Part shown: piece after piece, positions 2,844 to 53,726 of the stretch | Position numbering within the stretch: position 1 is the stretch's first letter | How the letters are laid out: every line of letters begins with the position of its first letter | IMG/VR virus record: IMGVR_UViG_2925897562_000001 | From: a virus | Taxonomy: Duplodnaviria; Heunggongvirae; Uroviricota; Caudoviricetes | DNA: 64,000 bases | Strand: one strand, 5' to 3' | Notes under the pieces: model-generated | What the model saw: the letters and a program-made list of their open reading frames with translations, nothing else | What the model was told of the DNA's origin: nothing | Database searches by the model: none | Position numbers and translations under genes: made by a program

Positions 2844-3644
2844 TTAGCGCGTTGCCGCGACAGGTACCAGCACACCAGCATCAAGCAATCGCTTCATCAG
2901 CCACTGCTGACCTTTGCCGGTTATACGAGTCGTGAAAGAAATCCTGCTTCCATTGCTTGTATCGATCACGGTTTCTTTAAGGGTGAAATACCCACGGGAT
3001 ATGTATTCTTGTTTGGGGACGTTCCTGCGTTCACCGGTTGCGATCAGAATTCCGTTATCACGCAACCAGGTGAAGAGATAGTTTTGGCCCAGGCCGAGCA
3101 CTTTGGCATAGTTGCCGATTAGAACTCCGCTGGCGGTAGCAACGCGTTCGGCGAATTCGACTTTAGGTGCATCCATAAGCATTTTTTGCTCCAGCCGTTG
3201 CTTTTGCTCTGCCAGGTCGGCAGCCAAACGGAGAGCTTCAGGGAGACTCTGCGGAATAGCAGGTTGTAATCTTCCGGCTCGATAGTCGATAAATGTCTGG
3301 TTTACCTTCAGCCGAAACGCGGGAGAAATCCAGCCTGCGTACTCCACAGCGAGCAATTCATGGGCAAAAGTGCCGCCGCCACGGCCTTCGAAAGAAACTA
3401 TGCAATTCTGCATAGTTTCTTTTTCAAGCTCTTCGATGAGCTGTTTGGCTGACAGCGTTCTTAGCCATTGAGCTGGCGCTTTATGGGCACCGAGTCCGCT
3501 CGCTCTGTGTAGAGCATTAAGGTTGTAACGGCCAGCGCGGTCGGTCGTAATTTCAACACCACAAATAACAGGCAGAGTGGTTGAAGGATCGACATTTTGA
3601 TGAAGGTTTGATATATTCATATCCGCATTGAATGTTTGTTGCAT
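2844..3644 (-). CDS. kilA: KilA (KilA-N domain protein, 266 aa)
   Basis: 266 aa; C-terminal half (LPEALRLAADLAEQK...GKGQQWL) paralogous to Ant C-terminus; directly upstream of repL. Confidence 0.8.
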   Translation of the reverse strand: MQQTFNADMNISNLHQNVDPSTTLPVICGVEITTDRAGRYNLNALHRASGLGAHKAPAQWLRTLSAKQLIEELEKETMQNCIVSFEGRGGGTFAHELLAVEYAGWISPAFRLKVNQTFIDYRAGRLQPAIPQSLPEALRLAADLAEQKQRLEQKMLMDAPKVEFAERVATASGVLIGNYAKVLGLGQNYLFTWLRDNGILIATGERRNVPKQEYISRGYFTLKETVIDTSNGSRISFTTRITGKGQQWLMKRLLDAGVLVPVAATR

Positions 3645-3807: not shown

Positions 3808-4851
3808 TTAACCTATTGCTACTGGTTTTAACAAACCAGCATCAAGTAGCTTGCGAGTTAACCACTGCTGGCCTTTACCCGTTAATTGGGGCGTCAGCCG
3901 TATCTGGTAGCCATTTTCATCATCCAGCACCACTTCTTTCACCGTGAAATATCCGGCGTTGATGTACTGCTGGCGCGGTACGTTTTTGCGCGCACCAAAA
4001 GCCATGAGAATGCCGTTCTGGCGCAACCATGAGAAAAGGGCGTTTTGCTTAAGTCCAACGACCTTTGCAAAGTTCCCGATCAGGATTCCATTAGCCGCTG
4101 ATACCCGGTCGGCAAAATCGACTTTAGGGGCTGCGGCCACCAGCTGTTGTTCCAACTGCATTTTCTGTTCTGCCAACTCGGCAGCCAGGCGTAGAGCTTC
4201 TGGTAATGTTTGGGGGATCGATGGGGTAGGTGAGTTTGCCTGCTGCAATTCTTCCAGTTTGTCGATCAGCGAACGGCGGACCGCTTTCGATTCGCGCGCG
4301 GCGACTCGCAGGGCTTGTTTGTAGGTCATGGTTATGACAACCATAGGCGTACCGCCACCTGGCGGCACGGTTGCACTTTTTGTGTAACCGTCCTCACCTT
4401 CTAATTCGTCGAGTATTTTTTCGATGAATTTGTTGTTCCGAACCTCTGGTTCCCCACATAACTTACGCGCTTCATTGACCATCTTTAACAGTGTCAGGCT
4501 GTCGATTGTGTCTCCGGTGGTGGGGATGACATTCACGGCTGGTGCTGACGTTGCTGAAGCAACAGGTGCTGGTTTTTTAACATTCAAATTATTACTGGTC
4601 ATTCTATGTGCCTCCTTTCTCATTTCTGCTGCCACCGTTGCGTAACGTAGACGTCCTTGTTCAATCAAATAATCCCTGATCTCGGCTATCAGTAGCCTGT
4701 TGATCACAGCCTTATCTGTTCGGGTATAAAAACGCCTGGTTATCATGAAATAGTTGGCAATTGCGCCGGGGATCTCCCGTGTCGGCATACAGGCAGTATG
4801 CAGGGCGATCGCTTCGGCTATTTCATTACGGGTGACGAGAGGTTTTTTCAT
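3808..4851 (-). CDS. ant1: antirepressor Ant1 (347 aa; Ant2 from internal in-frame start)
   Basis: Start overlaps icd stop (coupling); C-terminal KilAC-like domain; immI gene order c4-icd-ant. Confidence 0.8.
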   Translation of the reverse strand: MKKPLVTRNEIAEAIALHTACMPTREIPGAIANYFMITRRFYTRTDKAVINRLLIAEIRDYLIEQGRLRYATVAAEMRKEAHRMTSNNLNVKKPAPVASATSAPAVNVIPTTGDTIDSLTLLKMVNEARKLCGEPEVRNNKFIEKILDELEGEDGYTKSATVPPGGGTPMVVITMTYKQALRVAARESKAVRRSLIDKLEELQQANSPTPSIPQTLPEALRLAAELAEQKMQLEQQLVAAAPKVDFADRVSAANGILIGNFAKVVGLKQNALFSWLRQNGILMAFGARKNVPRQQYINAGYFTVKEVVLDDENGYQIRLTPQLTGKGQQWLTRKLLDAGLLKPVAIG

Positions 4852-28726: not shown

Positions 28727-31714
28727 ATGAGCTTAAGCGATCAGGTGGTAATGGCCACCAGCATAGAAACGCTGATCGAGCTGCTAAAGAACCTGCCCGA
28801 TTATGGGCGGGTTTCGTATGTGGTGACAGCGAAGGGAGACGAGGTAAAAACAGCGTTTGATATCGTCGATGCCTCAGCTCTTTTGGTATCCAATACTCTG
28901 GATGGGAAAATTAATCCTGACTATCCCCAGGAACTTCAACCGCGCGACCGGACCCGCGCATCCAGCCTTCTTCAGGTTAACCAGATATCCAAGGATTTGC
29001 GGCCTGCTCAGCTTACCGATTCCGGTCTATCCAGCCATGGCGCGCCGATAATTGGTGAGGACAATGCCGTTGAGTCAGGTAATGGACGGACCATGGGGAT
29101 CATTAAAGCCTATCAGGACGGCAATGCGGATCGGTATCGTGAGTACCTGATTGATCATGCGACCGAATTCGGCATACGACCTGAAAAGGTTGAATCAATG
29201 ACGGCTCCGGTACTGGTGCGCCGCCGGTTAACTAAGGTTGACCGCGTTCAGTTTGCCAAGGACTCAAATATTTCTGATCTTCAGGAAATGGCAGCCAGTG
29301 AAAAGGCTTTTGTTGATGCCGACAGCATAACACCGGCGATGATGGCGCTTTTTAACCCGTCAGAAAGCGGAGATCTGCTTAGCCGCAGTAATGACACGTT
29401 TATTCGCGGATTTATGACGCAAGTTGGTGCCACACAGGCGGCTGGCCTTGTAACTGAAGATGGGCGACCAACACGGCAACTTGTAGACCGTATACAAAAC
29501 GCGATCTTTGCCAAGGCATATAAGGATGCGCGCCTGGTAAGGATGGTTGCAGAAGAACCTGATCCGGATATGCGTAATGTTCTGACGGCGCTTAATGCGG
29601 CAGCCAATGATTTTGTCCAGATGCAGGCTTTGTCAGGAGAAGCGCACAAGCAGGCTGTGACAACTATTGTTGATGGCATTGAGACAGCGGATAGCCTCGA
29701 TAAAAAGGCGCTGGCGGCATTGAAAGATGCGGTAGACCTGGTAAGGCAATCGAAGGAGTTAGGCCAGCATATTACCGATGTTATTGCTCAGGGGGATATG
29801 TTCAGCGAAACGGCCCCGGAAGTGAAAGCACTCGCGTTGTTCATCGTCGCGAATAACCGTAGCGCGAAGCGTATGGCCACCGCCTTTAAGTTGATGGCGC
29901 AACGTATCAATGATGAGTTACAGCACCAGGGCCAGGCGCTCGGGGATATGTTTGGCGGCGGCGATGTGTCGTTACAGGATATCCTTCGCCAGGTGTCTCA
30001 GGAACTGGAAAACGAAGGCATGCAAGGGATATCCGGCGGTCTTTTCGAGTCCGTTTCCGGCGGTAGTTACAACGGTGTTGCTCCGTATACCAGTTTGCTA
30101 TTACATCGGGCATCCGGCATCAAAGACATTATTCATCTGATCAGGCTGCTTTCCCGCACAGATCCCCAGGATGAACAGCTTGTACAAGTGCTTGCGCATT
30201 TTGTTCGAATGCCTGTTGCCGACGTGAATAAATGGTGCCGATTATTCGGTATCAGCAATTCGTTACTTCGCGGATTGTTAAATCACGCATCCTCCCTTGG
30301 GCGCGACGGCTTTGATGAGATAGCGCAGGCGATACAAAACGGAGATATGCCACCAGCTATTGACTGGTTTTCCATTCGCCCAACCAGGGTGAAAGCATTC
30401 CTTAGCGCGGCGCATTCGGCATCACCATTGGCAGAAATGGTTCAGAGGTTGTCGCTCATATTCACAGACCATACCGCGTTGGGTGATCTGACTCTGGACG
30501 AGATGAAAGAAGCCTCCATTCAGTGGGCCGATCAACAAAATGAGGTTAACTCAGACTTCTTGCCAGCATTCAGGAAGGCCGTTAGTAAAGCGGATGATTC
30601 CCGTGGAATTCTGAAGGCATTTAAGGCATTGCAAAGTCGGGTTAATAAACATGTCGGAGATATCGATGGGGTAACGGCGGAAGGCAGGGATATCCTTAAA
30701 GAGCACGGCATAACGCCAGAGTTTATTGATGAGATCAGGACGGATATGCAGCGTGAGGTCGTATCGTCCCTGCAAATTGTAGCCAGAGCGTTGGCGGATG
30801 CTAATCCGAAGAGTGCGGCCATTGTTAACCGGGTTATTGGTGATATTGAAGCATCGGAGGGCATGGGGGCGCTGAAACTCTTCCTTTCGCGAGCGTTTAA
30901 TCCTAACGGCAATATTCTCCCTGGCATTATTGGTGAGGCTAAAAAGTATGTCAGTGAAGAAGAACTTGAGCAGCTTGACCAACTACTTAAGCGATTCTCA
31001 TATAACCCGCAGACACGCTGGCAAATGAATCAGCGAAGTATGGGTTCGGTCCACGAGAAAGTGTTATCTGCCATGAACAGTGCGATCGCAAACTCATCCG
31101 TATCTGAAGAAAAAGCTCTTGAGTGGGCCGACTCTTTTATCACAGAAGAAGTGGAAGAAGCCCGCGCTGGACAGAATGGTGGGATAGACCTGCGCAAGGA
31201 ACTTGCTGATATTTATCGCCTGACCGGCGGGAAAATATCGACCTTATCAAAGGTAGTTCACCACCAGGGAAGGGCATATGCAAATCTAAATGGTGTTGTT
31301 GCTGTCAATTTGAACGATGAAAATGCAAGTGCACTGTGGCACGAGCTGGGTCATCATCTTGAGTACAGTAACCCTGGTTTGTTAGAGAAAGCCCGGTCAT
31401 TCCTGAAGGCCAATGTTGAAGGGGATAAGCCATCTTTCGTTAATATCGGTGGGCGTGGCAAGCCTGAATGGTGCTTCAGATCTCGATTGAGTAATATTTA
31501 TATGGCGAAGGTATACCCGCCAGCCTCAGTAAGTAACACCGGGAAAATTCGGCAGAAATCACCGACTATTTCCAAAACGTCAGCAACGGAAGTATTCTCT
31601 ATGGCTCTTCAGTTGTATCATGACAAAGAGGCCGCTGCCGCATCACTGATGAATGGTGACGGATTGCTGGAACTGTTATTAGGTGTGGCAAAGGAGCTAA
31701 ATAATGCAGATTAA
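28727..31714 (+). CDS. ddrB: DdrB anti-restriction head protein (995 aa)
   Basis: Large ORF after ddrA in dar operon. Confidence 0.7.
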   Translation: MSLSDQVVMATSIETLIELLKNLPDYGRVSYVVTAKGDEVKTAFDIVDASALLVSNTLDGKINPDYPQELQPRDRTRASSLLQVNQISKDLRPAQLTDSGLSSHGAPIIGEDNAVESGNGRTMGIIKAYQDGNADRYREYLIDHATEFGIRPEKVESMTAPVLVRRRLTKVDRVQFAKDSNISDLQEMAASEKAFVDADSITPAMMALFNPSESGDLLSRSNDTFIRGFMTQVGATQAAGLVTEDGRPTRQLVDRIQNAIFAKAYKDARLVRMVAEEPDPDMRNVLTALNAAANDFVQMQALSGEAHKQAVTTIVDGIETADSLDKKALAALKDAVDLVRQSKELGQHITDVIAQGDMFSETAPEVKALALFIVANNRSAKRMATAFKLMAQRINDELQHQGQALGDMFGGGDVSLQDILRQVSQELENEGMQGISGGLFESVSGGSYNGVAPYTSLLLHRASGIKDIIHLIRLLSRTDPQDEQLVQVLAHFVRMPVADVNKWCRLFGISNSLLRGLLNHASSLGRDGFDEIAQAIQNGDMPPAIDWFSIRPTRVKAFLSAAHSASPLAEMVQRLSLIFTDHTALGDLTLDEMKEASIQWADQQNEVNSDFLPAFRKAVSKADDSRGILKAFKALQSRVNKHVGDIDGVTAEGRDILKEHGITPEFIDEIRTDMQREVVSSLQIVARALADANPKSAAIVNRVIGDIEASEGMGALKLFLSRAFNPNGNILPGIIGEAKKYVSEEELEQLDQLLKRFSYNPQTRWQMNQRSMGSVHEKVLSAMNSAIANSSVSEEKALEWADSFITEEVEEARAGQNGGIDLRKELADIYRLTGGKISTLSKVVHHQGRAYANLNGVVAVNLNDENASALWHELGHHLEYSNPGLLEKARSFLKANVEGDKPSFVNIGGRGKPEWCFRSRLSNIYMAKVYPPASVSNTGKIRQKSPTISKTSATEVFSMALQLYHDKEAAAASLMNGDGLLELLLGVAKELNNAD

Positions 31715-32012
31715 AATCGCAGCGCCATTAGGCGGAGATGCCATTATCGAATTTGATGATAATGAAGAAGTTTCCGGGCGTTTAAGCATTATCTCCGGTG
31801 ACATTACCGAGGACATGATCGCTGAAGCCATAGCTGGGGCAAATCCCAATAGCTATATGGGATTCGTTAACACCCTTGATGCTCCCGCAAGTGATGTTCT
31901 CCGAACGCTGCATCTTTACGCTGGCTGGTTTGTTGATTGGCCAGCAGTAGATGGTGGCGATGAGGACGACGACGATGATTTTGGTGATCATGTAGACCAG
32001 ATCGTATATTGA
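31704..32012 (+). CDS. small highly acidic protein (102 aa) ending the dar operon
   Basis: AAGGAG RBS; ~23 Asp/Glu versus 3 Lys/Arg; C-terminal DGGDEDDDDDFGD. Confidence 0.55.
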   Translation: MQIKIAAPLGGDAIIEFDDNEEVSGRLSIISGDITEDMIAEAIAGANPNSYMGFVNTLDAPASDVLRTLHLYAGWFVDWPAVDGGDEDDDDDFGDHVDQIVY

Positions 32013-32014
32013 AG

Positions 32015-32040
32015 AAATCCCGCCAATTGGCGGGATTTTT
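32015..32040. terminator. bidirectional rho-independent terminator
   Basis: AAATCCCGCC-AATT-GGCGGGATTT followed by T-run, between convergent operons. Confidence 0.65.
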
Positions 32041-32043
32041 ACC

Positions 32044-33138
32044 TCACGAGAAACTCTTTTCTGATGTCAGCCAACAGTGCTCGTGCATATCTCTTGGTGG
32101 TTTTTCGACAAATGCCTCTTCAGCCACATCCTGCCAGGGGATTTGTTTAGCCCATTCAGTTATAGCGTTATGGTTTGCCGAGAATAACGGTATTGTATAG
32201 GCCTTCAGCCAGTCTAATGTGCTGGAGTTGTGTTTTTGAGCGTGATGTTTCGCATGGTGTTTGGCGATCACGATCGTAGGCACTACCCATTTACTACCGT
32301 CAGTCATTGTGAAGTGCATATTACGGGGAACAGATGACTTTTCCATCAACTCCCGAATCCCGGGGAATTTCCCCAAGATCAATCGGCGATATTCATCGCT
32401 ATTGCGCCCACCAAACTCTTTGGCTTTGAATTCAAGATATGCTTCAGAAACGAGAGGTGAATCCTCTGTGTTTAGAGTTATCGCCGTGAAAAAACCAGCA
32501 GGATTGTTTTTACTATGGGCCAACCGGTGATGCGAATCATAAAAGTACCCTTTCTCGCGTTCCGATGGTTTCGACAGCAACAGCAGGCGCGAGTCATAAT
32601 TGGTTAAATTGCCAGTTATCACTGCATGAGCGCGATCGCTGATTTCCGCCGAGTTAATAACGATGAAAAGATCGTGCGGTCCAGTAAAACCAGCCAGAGA
32701 CTCTTCGTTATTCAGACAATAGGTTATATAGACGCATCCCCATGTTTCACTGATATGCACCAACCCTTTGTCAGGGTGTATTCTGAAATAATTGCCAAGA
32801 AAAGGGTGTTTTTGGGTAACTCGCTCCCAATAACGGAACATATAGTCAATTATTGTTTTTCGACAATCGTTAATCGCAGGAGAAACAACCACTGTACGGG
32901 AACACGAATACAGTATTGTTTGCAGGATGCTAATCACTGCCACAATAGAGGTTTCCCCAATACCATGTGGTGTGGTGGCAGTGATTTTGGCTCCGGTGTT
33001 CTTTATCGCGTTAATAATTTTTGCTTGATGAGGTGTTAACTCAATATCAAGCAACTCTTTTGCTGCCAGTTCCCAATTGTCTTTATACCGTTCTATCAGT
33101 GCTAACCAGGCAGATTCATTCTGTATACGATTAATCAC
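32044..33138 (-). CDS. terminase large-subunit (PacB) N-terminal ATPase-domain paralog, catalytically degenerate, no nuclease domain (364 aa)
   Basis: Aligns by eye to PacB residues ~10-250 of this same window; Walker A GTGKS becomes GIGET; Walker B IIDEAS becomes VINSAE; C-terminal 110 aa unrelated to PacB nuclease domain. Confidence 0.7.
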   Translation of the reverse strand: MINRIQNESAWLALIERYKDNWELAAKELLDIELTPHQAKIINAIKNTGAKITATTPHGIGETSIVAVISILQTILYSCSRTVVVSPAINDCRKTIIDYMFRYWERVTQKHPFLGNYFRIHPDKGLVHISETWGCVYITYCLNNEESLAGFTGPHDLFIVINSAEISDRAHAVITGNLTNYDSRLLLLSKPSEREKGYFYDSHHRLAHSKNNPAGFFTAITLNTEDSPLVSEAYLEFKAKEFGGRNSDEYRRLILGKFPGIRELMEKSSVPRNMHFTMTDGSKWVVPTIVIAKHHAKHHAQKHNSSTLDWLKAYTIPLFSANHNAITEWAKQIPWQDVAEEAFVEKPPRDMHEHCWLTSEKSFS

Positions 33139-34039
33139 TTTCCACCTCTTCCGTGGTGTTTTCTTGCAGTTCTGTTAATGCAGCACGACATAGGTTCCGG
33201 GCATTGGCTATAGCCACACTTTTGACTTCATCCGTCATCGTGCAGGTAATGTACTGATCGAGTTCTTCAGCGCGGATGATGCTTTTGCCAATCAGAAACT
33301 GTATTTGCCATAGCAGATCGGCATCCATAATCAGAATTTCTGCCGGGCCTTCAGGGCCAGCCGGGAAGGAAACATAAGACTGTTTGCCCAGGCCGACAAC
33401 TCGACAACTTGCTTCAAGAATTGCGCGCTTGAGGTCTGACTTTATAACGGAAACAGGTTGATTTTCACCAGTGATTACGCCGTTGACATGGAAAGGCATG
33501 TAGCTTGAAATACGCTCTACTTTCCACACGCCAGCAAGCGATCCTTCATGCAGCACAATGGGGGTAACCGCGAGTTTCATCTCACCATATAACTGCTGGC
33601 AGATAGCTGGATTGCTGAATACATCTAAAGGCTCACATTCAAACAGCTGCGCAATCTGCATGAGGTCCATCATGGTCATCCCTGGGGTACGAGCAGTAAT
33701 GAATTTGCGCATACCAGTATCCATTGCGCTCCAGATTGCTACACCATGCTTTTTGCTCACTTCTTCAGTAAAGCCAAGGTGGCACATGATGGTTTTTTCG
33801 ATAGCCAGATCAGAGATAGAAACCTTTTCGCCAGGTACTCCATCATTATTGATGGTCACTTCGACACTCTGGCCATTACGTAGGCGGTATTGAATGGTTT
33901 TAGTATTTTGTGCTGTCATAGTCTTTTCTCTGCTTAAAAACTGATGTATTGCGTCTTCAGGTGGGTTAGGAATGTTTTCCCACCAGCGAAAGCAATATCT
34001 CGTGGTGTTCTGTTCGTTAAAAACGCGTGCCATTGCCAA
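33131..34039 (-). CDS. hypothetical protein (302 aa; true start possibly internal), partner of the PacB paralog
   Basis: Stop overlaps downstream gene start by 8 nt (operon); no recognisable motif. Confidence 0.5.
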   Translation of the reverse strand: MAMARVFNEQNTTRYCFRWWENIPNPPEDAIHQFLSREKTMTAQNTKTIQYRLRNGQSVEVTINNDGVPGEKVSISDLAIEKTIMCHLGFTEEVSKKHGVAIWSAMDTGMRKFITARTPGMTMMDLMQIAQLFECEPLDVFSNPAICQQLYGEMKLAVTPIVLHEGSLAGVWKVERISSYMPFHVNGVITGENQPVSVIKSDLKRAILEASCRVVGLGKQSYVSFPAGPEGPAEILIMDADLLWQIQFLIGKSIIRAEELDQYITCTMTDEVKSVAIANARNLCRAALTELQENTTEEVESD

Positions 34040-34121
34040 CTTTGGCGTTTTTTAGCGAGTTCGTGCTTTTGTTGGCGTTTGGACCACCGCTTTTCTTTCA
34101 GTCGTTTTTTACTCATAAACT

Positions 34122-34610
34122 CTAAAACGGAATATCGTCTTCAAAGTCCATTGGAGGTTCGTTATTGGCGCTGCTCTGAGGTTTGCCGCCACCGCTGTAT
34201 TGCTGGTGGTTTTGAGGTTGGTTTGACTGCCCCCAGCCATTTGAGGACTGTGAATCGTCGCGGCGAGTGTCGATCATTTGCATGGTGCCGCCCTGGCTGA
34301 CGATAATTTCCGTCGTGTAACGTTCTACACCGGCGTCATCAGTCCACTTACGGGTTTTAAGTTTCCCTTCGATGTAGACCTGAGAACCTTTTCGTAAATA
34401 CTCACTCGCAATTTCAGCAAGTTTTCCGAACAAAACGACTTTATGCCATTCTGTTTGCTCTTTCTGTTGGCCCGTTTGCTTATCGCGCCATGATTCATTC
34501 GTTGCGATGCTGAGTCTTCCGACTGCGCCGCCATTTGGTATATACCTGATCTCCGGGTCTTGCCCCAGGGTACCAATCAGGATGACTTTATTTACACCGC
34601 GTTGTGCCAC
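34122..34610 (-). CDS. ssb: single-stranded DNA-binding protein (162 aa)
   Basis: OB-fold SSB sequence with Gly/Gln-rich linker and acidic DFEDDIPF tail. Confidence 0.9.
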
Positions 34611-34779
34611 TTTTCTTACCTAATAAAATAAATTAATTAGGGCAATAATGTATATCTTTGAAACGTGGCTAACAAGTGATTTGCATTATCCTGTGCCTTC
34701 TAAAGGGATCGAGTCAGTCGGTATTGGCTGTGAATGAGTGTTTGTCCTGGAGCGTAAAAAATTCGCTTATGAGGTCTTT

Positions 34780-35337
34780 ATGAAGGGAAAAACAGCCGCA
34801 GGAGGCGGTGCAATTTGCGCTATCGCGGTGATGATTACCATCGTGATGGGTAATGGCAATGTGCGAACCAACCAGGCGGGGCTTGAGCTGATTGGTAACG
34901 CTGAAGGTTGCCGACGTGATCCATACATGTGCCCGGCGGGGGTATGGACTGACGGGATCGGTAATACACACGGGGTAACGCCGGGTGTGCGAAAAACCGA
35001 CCAGCAAATCGCCGCTGATTGGGAAAAGAATATCCTGATCGCTGAACGCTGTATTAATCAGCACTTCCGGGGCAAAGACATGCCCGATAATGCCTTCAGT
35101 GCAATGACAAGCGCGGCATTCAATATGGGATGCAATAGCTTACGGACCTACTACAGCAAAGCGCGAGGCATGCGAGTAGAAACGTCCATCCACAAGTGGG
35201 CGCAGAAAGGGGAATGGGTGAATATGTGTAACCATCTCCCTGATTTCGTGAACAGTAACGGCGTGCCCCTGCGAGGTTTAAAGATTCGCCGTGAAAAAGA
35301 ACGCCAGCTTTGCCTGACGGGGCTTGTCAATGAATAA
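34780..35337 (+). CDS. lyz: endolysin Lyz with N-terminal SAR signal-anchor (185 aa)
   Basis: MKGKTAAGGGAICAIAVMITIVMG SAR domain plus T4-lysozyme-like catalytic region; start set at second ATG (34780). Confidence 0.85.
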   Translation: MKGKTAAGGGAICAIAVMITIVMGNGNVRTNQAGLELIGNAEGCRRDPYMCPAGVWTDGIGNTHGVTPGVRKTDQQIAADWEKNILIAERCINQHFRGKDMPDNAFSAMTSAAFNMGCNSLRTYYSKARGMRVETSIHKWAQKGEWVNMCNHLPDFVNSNGVPLRGLKIRREKERQLCLTGLVNE

Positions 35338-52241: not shown

Positions 52242-53726
52242 TTATTCATTAAGCCATGCCAGAGCTTCATCAACCTGCGCTTCGTCTTCGACGCTAAGCA
52301 CTTCATCCTGGGGAACATAATCCGCCAGCATAGCGAAACAATATGTATCCCAATGGTCTGGTGAGTGCAGGTTGAGTTTTTTCTTCATATCCTCCTTACT
52401 CATCACCTTCCATTGACCTGCGGAGTTAATCCCTACAGGGATTTTCGACGCTTCCTCAATAGTTTCATTACCCTTATCCAGTCTCATACGACCAGATTTT
52501 ACGGCCTCTGCGGCTTGAACGTTGGCATAAGCACGTTTATCAAAGTACAGGCTCTTATCTTCACGGCTATGCATCTTTTTACCCCAGCGTATACGCTGTA
52601 CGGTAATACCATAATACTCGTACATCAGATCCGCCGTTGCTTTACCCAGCCCATCGCCGTCTATCGCTATGGTGATATTTGGGAATCGCTCAGGATTACA
52701 TTCTGCGAAAATTTTGGCGGCAAGCTGCGTTTCTGTAACGTCTGTGTATTCCAGCATTCGATAGTTGATTACACGGCGTTTATTTCTCTGGCCGGACACC
52801 ATCATGATATTGATAACGGACTTATCCCGTCCCGTACCACCAGCAACGTCCACACATGCAAGCCAGCCCCATCCTTTGGCAATCTTGACTTTCCGCCGCG
52901 TCGCACGTTCAACCTCATCACGTCCAAGAAGGAAGCCATCCTGTGATTTAGGGAATAGTCCGCGTACCTTAATCATGTACATAGGGTTATCACGCCCGCC
53001 GTACTCCGCCAGCTTCATTTTGATAAATGCTGGCGTTACCAGCGGTGATTCCTCACTGTTAAGCGTGATCGCCGTATAAACGCCATCAGGGTTACCAGGA
53101 CGCTTGGCCAGTTTATGGTGAGTATCGTAGAAATAGCCGCTTGGGCGTGTAGGCTGTGACAGTAATAAGATGCGGTTATCCTGTCCGGTAAGAGCACCGG
53201 TGATGATACCGAAAGCTCTATCACTGACACCGGAGGCTTCATCGATAATATACAGAAGATGATCTGCGTGTTCACCGGCGAGAGCTTCTTCACTTCCCAG
53301 ACGAAAGCCCTTCGGTACTACAGTCCATACACCTTTACCAGTAACCTCATAGAAAGCGGTTTCTGTCAGAACAAAATAATCAGCAAGCCATGGAAAACGG
53401 CTGGTGGCAGTAGCCCAGTTTATCTTGATGTACTTGAATATACCGGTCATTACCTGCTGAATTTTGTTCGCAACGATAATGGCGCGGGCACCGGGATACA
53501 TGATTATGAACAACATGATCATGATAGAAGTCATGTCTGATTTCCCGGTACCGTGACCAGACGAAACAGATGTCTTGCTACCCTGTTCCTGCACAGACTC
53601 AATAATCAGATCCTGCTGCCAGGTAGGTGTTTTGCCGAACAAAACATCAGCGGCAGCAATCCAGTCATAACGATATAGCGCCACCAGCTCGCGCCAACGT
53701 GGATCCGTTACGCAACTTCTGGCCAT
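52242..53726 (-). CDS. pacB: terminase large subunit PacB (494 aa)
   Basis: Walker A SGHGTGKS, Walker [12 protein letters not shown]-terminal nuclease domain; coupled to pacA. Confidence 0.9.

Follow-up and report, generated by a model that had tools for sequence, protein, structure and literature searches.

Downstream of ssb in a P1-like phage-plasmid (IMG/VR record IMGVR_UViG_2925897562_000001; the whole 64,000-nucleotide (nt) stretch of DNA analysed is termed the window) are two genes on the minus strand, the second of which encodes a protein, here called pseudo-PacB, that is related to the large terminase subunit PacB and has lost its catalytic residues. Over window positions 31500–34500, identity is 99.1% to Escherichia phage vB_EcoM-813R1 and 96.5% to two further 'Punavirus P1' records. 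Both open reading frames (ORFs) were verified, that of the first gene extending over 33131–34039 (302 amino acids (aa) from a TTG), and they form the two-gene unit beside ssb that an initial annotation, made from the sequence, had described. The first gene, of isaA type, overlaps the second by 8 nts (33131–33138), and the Shine Dalgarno sequence for pseudo-PacB, GAGGTGG, sits within the 3′ end of the first. The functional PacB of the window is encoded with pacA ~19 kb away from the ssb operon.

The kinship with PacB, which had been noticed by eye, is significant. When the 364-aa protein is aligned with the window's PacB by BLASTP, identity is 35% across 266 residues (E 5e-55), and the match extends over PacB residues 11–274, that is, the whole ATPase domain. 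Pseudo-PacB is closest to the PacB family (35–39% identity, as against ~26% to other terminases), though in PHROGs it has a family of its own, phrog_5902, with a weaker match to the terminase large-subunit family phrog_2. An ASCE ATPase domain of the terminase type is present by both sequence and fold, and the N-terminal helix, the Q motif and the lid motifs (GYFYDSHH, ITLN.E.SP and GxFP) of PacB are kept. In the window's version, resemblance to PacB is lowest at the N-terminus (21–25% identity); covariation of this part with the resident PacB was tested for and none was found. An AlphaFold model of the protein is of moderate quality (predicted local distance difference test, pLDDT, 73.5), confidence being low at residues 170–230 and at the Walker A remnant. 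A word-indexed homolog search with the full protein yielded just three proteins and missed PacB.

What has been lost is the ATP site. In a multiple alignment all real terminases have SGHG[TC]GKS as Walker A and [ILV][ILV]DEAS as Walker B (the second residue of the latter being Leu too in two PacBs), whereas the corresponding pairs in pseudo-PacBs are TPHGIGET / VINSAE in the window, and TPHGIGRP / IIVDSA and T[IT]P[TH]GIGHK / IVMDAA in others. The replacement of the Walker A lysine and of the Walker B acidic pair, also pointed out in the initial annotation, is thus borne out. Both motifs are lost in all four lineages, and differently in each, the lysine position having E, R, H or T (Walker A of the other lineages reads GIGRPQ, GIGHKS and GTGTTT) and the Asp-Glu position NS, VD or MD. 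Replacement of the first P-loop Gly by Pro is common to the three P1-type lineages and does not occur in the fourth, the P0043 fragment. A P-loop in an alternative register was ruled out, as a scan of all registers revealed neither a GK[ST] nor an hhhD[DE] motif. That a non-canonical nucleotide site nevertheless makes pseudo-PacB an active ATPase is exceedingly unlikely and largely excluded: all pseudo-PacBs have the Q-motif glutamine (Q38 of PacB), and in the GIGHKS lineage a Lys-Ser is present shifted by one position, but the residue at the lysine position varies freely, the first P-loop Gly has become Pro in the P1-type lineages, and the acidic residues of Walker B are both unconserved.

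The RNase H-like nuclease domain of PacB (residues ~275–494) is also gone, the similarity stopping at PacB residue ~274. The initial annotation had it as absent, which holds for the PacB domain itself, but the domain is replaced and not merely missing, since an unrelated domain of ~100 residues stands in its position (Table 1). Pseudo-PacB lacks four of five defining terminase features tested (the Walker A lysine, Walker B, the nuclease domain, and location in a late operon adjacent to the small subunit gene). Judged from its sequence, it is not a terminase and cannot serve as packaging motor or nuclease.

Table 1. Features of the pseudo-PacB locus of the window, with related features elsewhere
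Feature	Coordinates	Strand	Remarks
Pseudo-PacB gene	32044..33138	-	364 aa, GTG start; PacB-derived ATPase-fold domain plus unrelated C-terminal domain
Terminase large-subunit ATPase-like domain	32353..33138	-	Residues 1-262; catalytically degenerate
Walker A remnant TPHGIGET	32950..32973	-	Residues 56-63; aligns with PacB SGHGTGKS; Lys to Glu, first Gly to Pro
Walker B remnant FIVINSAE	32644..32667	-	Residues 158-165; N162 and S163 in place of PacB Asp-Glu
C-terminal domain in nuclease-domain position	32047..32352	-	Residues 263-364; family of ~100-aa acidic stand-alone phage proteins
isaA-type partner gene	33131..33919	-	262 aa from ATG at 33919; ORF open to TTG at 34039; acidic, isoelectric point (pI) 5.0
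Small ORF	33934..34116	-	60 aa, very basic (MSKKRLKEKRWSKRQQKHELAKKRQ...); start 6 nt past ssb stop; coding status uncertain
ssb	34122..34610	-	First gene of the operon
C1 repressor operator, ATTGCCCTAATTAATTT	34630..34646	-	Ossb/Op21 equivalent; overlaps ssb promoters
Hairpin	32010..32046		Directly 3' of pseudo-PacB stop codon; between convergent pseudo-PacB and hxr genes
PacB	52242..53726	-	Functional terminase large subunit, parent paralog; SGHGTGKS and IIDEAS intact
DUF2829/Tad2-like gene	L010 4539-5219; L029 4518-5219; L030 4515-5162		~226 aa; extra N-terminal domain

The replacement domain (C-domain) matches the C-terminus of phrog_17928 (E 1.6e-13). A HMMER scan of 1.8 billion representatives with the segment gave 154 proteins at E≤1e-3, mostly stand-alone proteins of ~100 aa, and a profile search gave 1064 clusters at E≤1e-5, all of them named 'hypothetical' and none with a Pfam domain. 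A Pfam scan of ten homologs likewise gave no match, phage GenBank records annotate the homologs merely as hypothetical proteins, and searches of PDB sequences (with the pseudo-PacB protein, and with profiles of the C-domain and of its partner, IsaA) gave no significant match. The family is strongly acidic (median pI 4.3) and is defined by a motif over ~95 residues, also present in pseudo-PacB, TM.DGS.W.VP..VIA..RA.YYA ... DT.PLF ... DWA.NNM.W.DV ... GW, in the alignment of which P, T, F, W, A and W columns are invariant. Its members in enterobacterial lambdoid prophages are encoded either downstream of the replication genes, in the nin region, or beside int, in the early-left accessory region. 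Modelled with high confidence (pLDDT ~85–95), the C-domain is the best conserved part of pseudo-PacB between lineages (63–64% identity, against 43–51% for the ATPase part), and for this reason is probably central to its function. Where the family has IA..RA.YYA, pseudo-PacB has a His-rich helix, IAKHHAKHHAQKH (residues ~290–302; window 32230–32270), with His at i, i+1, i+4 and i+5, a feature that the three diverged pseudo-PacB lineages all share and that may serve, in the fused form specifically, to bind metal or to sense pH.

The same two domains have been joined elsewhere. In a bacterial genome contig (L038, 6001–6741) the C-domain is fused N-terminal to the start of a PacB-like ATPase, whose Walker A reads SGTGTTT (Lys to Thr); the fusion gene is cut by a Tn3-family transposase fragment, and its neighbours are AbiH and a RecA-dependent nuclease gene. 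This is a second, independent pairing of the C-domain with a PacB-like ATPase, in the opposite order. Long (~440–460 aa) coiled-coil phage proteins rich in Glu, Arg and Ala (P0073 and P0105; phrog_17928 at full length) end in the C-domain as well, as do proteins with several further, unrelated N-terminal regions; the domain acts as a portable module.

Of 72,556 plasmids searched by tblastn, 783 records gave a match, most of them via PacB. Pseudo-PacB at ≥80% identity is present in 119 of them and full-length variants of 48–53% identity in ~42 more, so that ~161 of the 783, roughly one fifth, have it; P1 does not. The gene is accessory and not core, and the suggestion that it is accessory cargo is upheld by this distribution and by its location, since the interval between ssb and hxr is the variable region of P1-like phage-plasmids that has been published as RD-2 (PMC6906374, PMC9603915). 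Pseudo-PacBs of two P1-like lineages are 48–53% identical and the corresponding PacBs 57%, while any pair of a pseudo-PacB with a PacB is 35–39% identical, a pattern that points to a single duplication older than the lineage split; the shared Gly to Pro change in the P-loop fits a single ancestral inactivation of the P1-type clade. The ORF is intact in all 21 IMG/VR loci, isaA is directly upstream in all 20 complete ones, and the ratio of nonsynonymous to synonymous substitution (dN/dS) is 0.23–0.32 among the more diverged pairs. These figures indicate a gene that is old and under purifying selection. Loss of the catalytic motifs, and the lack of the gene from many relatives, could be taken for decay of a functionless duplicate, but full-length ORFs throughout with a dN/dS of ~0.25, an architecture kept across lineages only 48–53% identical, a conserved overlap with isaA, and a C-domain more conserved than the rest largely refute this, and it can hardly be right.

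The gene upstream, whose product the initial annotation regarded as unrecognisable, is the ortholog of P1 isaA (gp017). It is in the same position downstream of ssb, there is 95% nucleotide identity to P1 over 33130–34800, and its protein belongs to phrog_2326 (E 6e-149). As diverged homologs begin at the equivalent of Met44, the ATG at 33919 is most likely the true start, which makes the protein probably 262 and not 302 aa. No conserved nuclease motif was identified in IsaA. In P1 both isaA and isaB are non-essential by CRISPR interference (PMC10695390), and a literature search on the two genes yielded just 'IS1-associated', function unassigned and non-essential. An IsaA-KilAC chimera (P0014) was considered as a functional clue and rejected, since it looks recombinant or truncated.

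It had been supposed that the IS1 and isa genes of P1 may be a disrupted version of what the window retains whole. Comparison with P1 (L001, NC_005856) does not bear this out. Homology ends at the isaA stop codon, with IsaA full-length, and window 32011–33129 is without nucleotide homology to P1. Past isaA, P1 has a terminator-like hairpin, IS1 and isaB, in the slot where the window has the pseudo-PacB gene. A perfect direct repeat of 9 bp, CAGAGGGCA (at 3354–3363 and 4132–4140), stands on either side of the IS1, which is a simple insertion in the non-coding spacer between the hairpin after isaA and the isaB promoter, so that the 'IS1-associated' gene names reflect position only and not disruption. 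Neither nucleotide comparison nor inspection of the protein sequence, the two means used, revealed any resemblance of IsaB (gp020) to pseudo-PacB, to which it appears unrelated. That IsaB is the 3′ half of a pseudo-PacB split by IS1 is ruled out by this comparison and the target duplication; because the homology ends where it does, IsaB appears unrelated and IS1 is a simple insertion, P1 is seen to lack pseudo-PacB and to have other cargo in the slot. In contig L007, isaA is joined directly to the sequence following pseudo-PacB.

As to when the two genes are expressed, the operator before ssb has one mismatch to the annotated P1 C1 operator, ATTGCTCTAATTAATTT, and is in the same position. A simple promoter scan of the minus strand found no internal sigma-70 promoter, and the hairpin following pseudo-PacB (RNA fold −20.7 kcal/mol, z −6.3 versus shuffles) is likely a bidirectional terminator that closes the operon. 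Going by P1 annotation, the genes would then be transcribed as part of the early ssb operon under C1 repression, and hence at the onset of lytic growth. The ssb-hxr interval is a known cargo hotspot and adjoins the dar anti-restriction operon.

A second site is informative. In another P1-like lineage the order is pacA-pacB-c1-cre-orf-orf-dut-DUF2829-isaA-like-pseudoPacB, convergent with doc-phd, where DUF2829 is a Tad2-like gene (PF11195). This cassette has diverged pseudo-PacB variants, and the overlap with isaA is kept. At the ssb site, a DUF2829 ortholog is inserted immediately before isaA in some loci (L010, L012, L016 and L025). The window does not have it. DUF2829 orthologs from the ssb and cre-dut sites are 64–80% identical, far less diverged than the two neighbouring genes, which suggests recent exchange, and the occurrence of the cassette at two sites, with or without DUF2829, indicates a two- or three-gene unit that moved between sites. 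[The presence or absence of the DUF2829 gene changes exactly at the isaA start codon, the same leader sequence preceding in either case.]

These locations bear on two alternatives. In the first, pseudo-PacB would work together with the phage's SSB, which is encoded upstream, as an accessory factor in early DNA metabolism, be it replication or recombination. The shared operon is in line with this, as are the location of stand-alone C-domain homologs beside replication genes (DnaB, O/P) in lambdoid prophages and the commonness of the ASCE ATPase fold among helicases. However, the second-lineage cassette is not adjacent to ssb, the lambdoid positions are generic accessory regions (nin, ea), and, having no ATP site, pseudo-PacB cannot be a motor; the explanation is very unlikely. 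In the second, which is quite unlikely, the pair would be a prophage defence or superinfection exclusion module whose terminase-like domain senses incoming packaging proteins or DNA, with IsaA or the C-domain as effector. Against it, PADLOC-DB v2 gave no defence family at E≤1 for either protein, the lack of an identified nuclease motif in IsaA does not help, and the genes are co-oriented with dut and the Tad2-like gene, which serve the phage. Moreover, the promoter is C1-repressed in P1, so that the gene should be silent in lysogens.

The explanation that we tentatively prefer, as possible rather than probable, is that pseudo-PacB is a non-catalytic terminase mimic acting in complex with IsaA in an early counter-defence or host-interaction module. 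The protein descends from an ancient copy of the ATPase domain of the P1-family PacB; it lost the nuclease domain and, by its motifs, probably ATP binding and hydrolysis, and gained a C-domain from a widespread family of small, acidic accessory proteins of phages. It would be produced together with IsaA (a complex of the two is probable because the genes overlap). As it is a selected pseudoenzyme, it probably works by binding and not by catalysis, and it may do so within a mobile counter-defence or host-takeover cassette consisting of the Tad2-like gene, isaA and pseudo-PacB. An early accessory role is suggested by the C1-controlled ssb promoters (known from P1, with the operator conserved), the Tad2-like and dut neighbours, the cargo hotspot and the behaviour of the C-domain family. 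The dead ATPase fold could then engage terminase-recognising factors, for example host sensors like Avs1-3 or Upx, without offering them an ATP-loaded active site. Avs2 and Avs3 read terminase-bound ATP and the active site, and the T4 protein vs.8, a paralog of the large-subunit ATPase with intact Walker motifs, activates EcAvs2 (PMC13601566), from which it follows that a paralog without an ATP site is expected to escape sensing. In a more specific form of the mimic explanation, which is unlikely, an early excess of ATP-less pseudo-PacB, with IsaA and the C-domain, would occupy or disable terminase-fold sensors (Avs1-3, Upx) ahead of PacB.

Several points count against the mimic explanation. 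The binding partner, the complex and the target are all inferred, PADLOC, Pfam and NCBIfam give no match for either protein, and the Tad2-like gene offers a weak guilt by association, the more so as the window itself is without it. The interfaces of Avs2 and Avs3 are sealed by terminase ATP and active-site residues, so that loss of the ATP site should lower affinity, and a lower affinity for the sensors fits evasion better than competitive inhibition. Mimicry covers neither IsaA nor the C-domain. The operon timing is that of P1 annotation, and there may be an internal promoter. The AlphaFold model is only moderate, residues 170–230 of it being of low confidence.

The main rival develops an idea of the initial annotation and is that pseudo-PacB interferes with, or regulates, packaging, the dead ATPase domain having kept PacB surfaces that bind PacA, pac DNA or PacB subunits. 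In this way the pacase of a P1-like phage infecting the same cell could be titrated or poisoned, or the pac cleavage of the phage itself could be tuned. That the protein is specifically a PacB-family paralog, and that its N-terminal helix, Q motif and lid motifs are kept, are in favour of this. Satellites manipulate the packaging of their helpers (PMC11417361). One dead subunit poisons ring ATPases, and SaPI Ppi, PICI Rpp and the PLE factors are satellite proteins that interfere with packaging; such proteins are non-enzymatic and act on the terminase machinery by binding, as pseudo-PacB would. They differ from it, as far as their descriptions go, in being satellite-encoded, and in being small-subunit-like or unrelated small proteins and not dead large-subunit ATPase domains. 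Other considerations make the packaging explanation rather unlikely. With functional pacAB in the same genome, pseudo-PacB would harm the phage that encodes it. The gene is missing from most relatives and from P1, which packages normally, so that it is not needed for packaging. Its operon is early and C1-controlled, not late. Similarity to PacB is lowest in the N-terminal region, where no covariation with the resident PacB was found either. The nuclease domain, which in other terminases contributes to contacts with portal and DNA, is missing.

Comparison with known systems sharpens the distinctions. Pseudo-PacB shares with P1 PacB 35% identity across the ATPase domain, the fold, the N-terminal helix and the Q and lid motifs; unlike PacB, it has neither the Walker A lysine nor the Walker B Asp-Glu, has the ~100-aa domain in place of the RNase H-like nuclease, and is not beside pacA but in an early operon, as accessory and not core. 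Its nearest precedent appears to be the uncharacterised T4 vs.8, a paralog of the gp17 ATPase domain, which is likewise a phage-encoded stand-alone copy of a terminase ATPase without the nuclease domain (PMC13601566). However, vs.8 keeps Walker A and B and triggers EcAvs2, whereas pseudo-PacB has lost both motifs and has the extra C-terminal domain (the two were compared by description only). In the papers searched, neither an inactive terminase paralog of P1-like elements nor an anti-defence protein that mimics terminase was described. The likeness to P1 IsaA/IsaB is confined to the partner, an IsaA ortholog in the same ssb-hxr slot, IsaB being apparently unrelated to pseudo-PacB. With Tad2/DUF2829, the anti-Thoeris sponges, the connection is that a DUF2829 gene recurs upstream of the IsaA-pseudoPacB pair, at two genomic sites and in two lineages; it is a neighbour only, without homology to pseudo-PacB.

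Among the proteins of tailed phages, large terminase subunits are conserved most, and they are the main 'pattern' for several bacterial immune sensors. The lineage described here has kept a long-selected second copy that cannot be an enzyme and has been refitted with a domain from a large, uncharacterised, acidic early family. It offers a testable entry to roles of the terminase fold beyond packaging, to the function of the ~100-aa family, and to the role of P1 IsaA, for which the P1 annotation used gives no function. Should pseudo-PacB be a mimic directed at host sensors or at the packaging of rival phages, it would represent a new mechanism in phage-host or phage-phage conflict, relevant to P1-like phage-plasmids as spreaders of resistance genes in Enterobacteria; counter-defence by self-mimicry would be of a kind that the literature search did not find described among known anti-defence proteins.

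Two lesser matters concern annotation. Pfam and NCBIfam scans of pseudo-PacB and IsaA gave no matches, and one public record (L002, MH422554.1, 2545–3639) names pseudo-PacB 'terminase large subunit', a label that is misleading because the ATP site is lost and the nuclease domain missing, and that could inflate terminase counts in automated analyses. Nearly every related locus has the small ORF between ssb and isaA open and 83–98% conserved, and this holds for P1 too, whose annotation does not include it; the ORF overlaps, in another frame, an equally open 5′ extension of isaA, and it is this extension that P1 annotates as coding.

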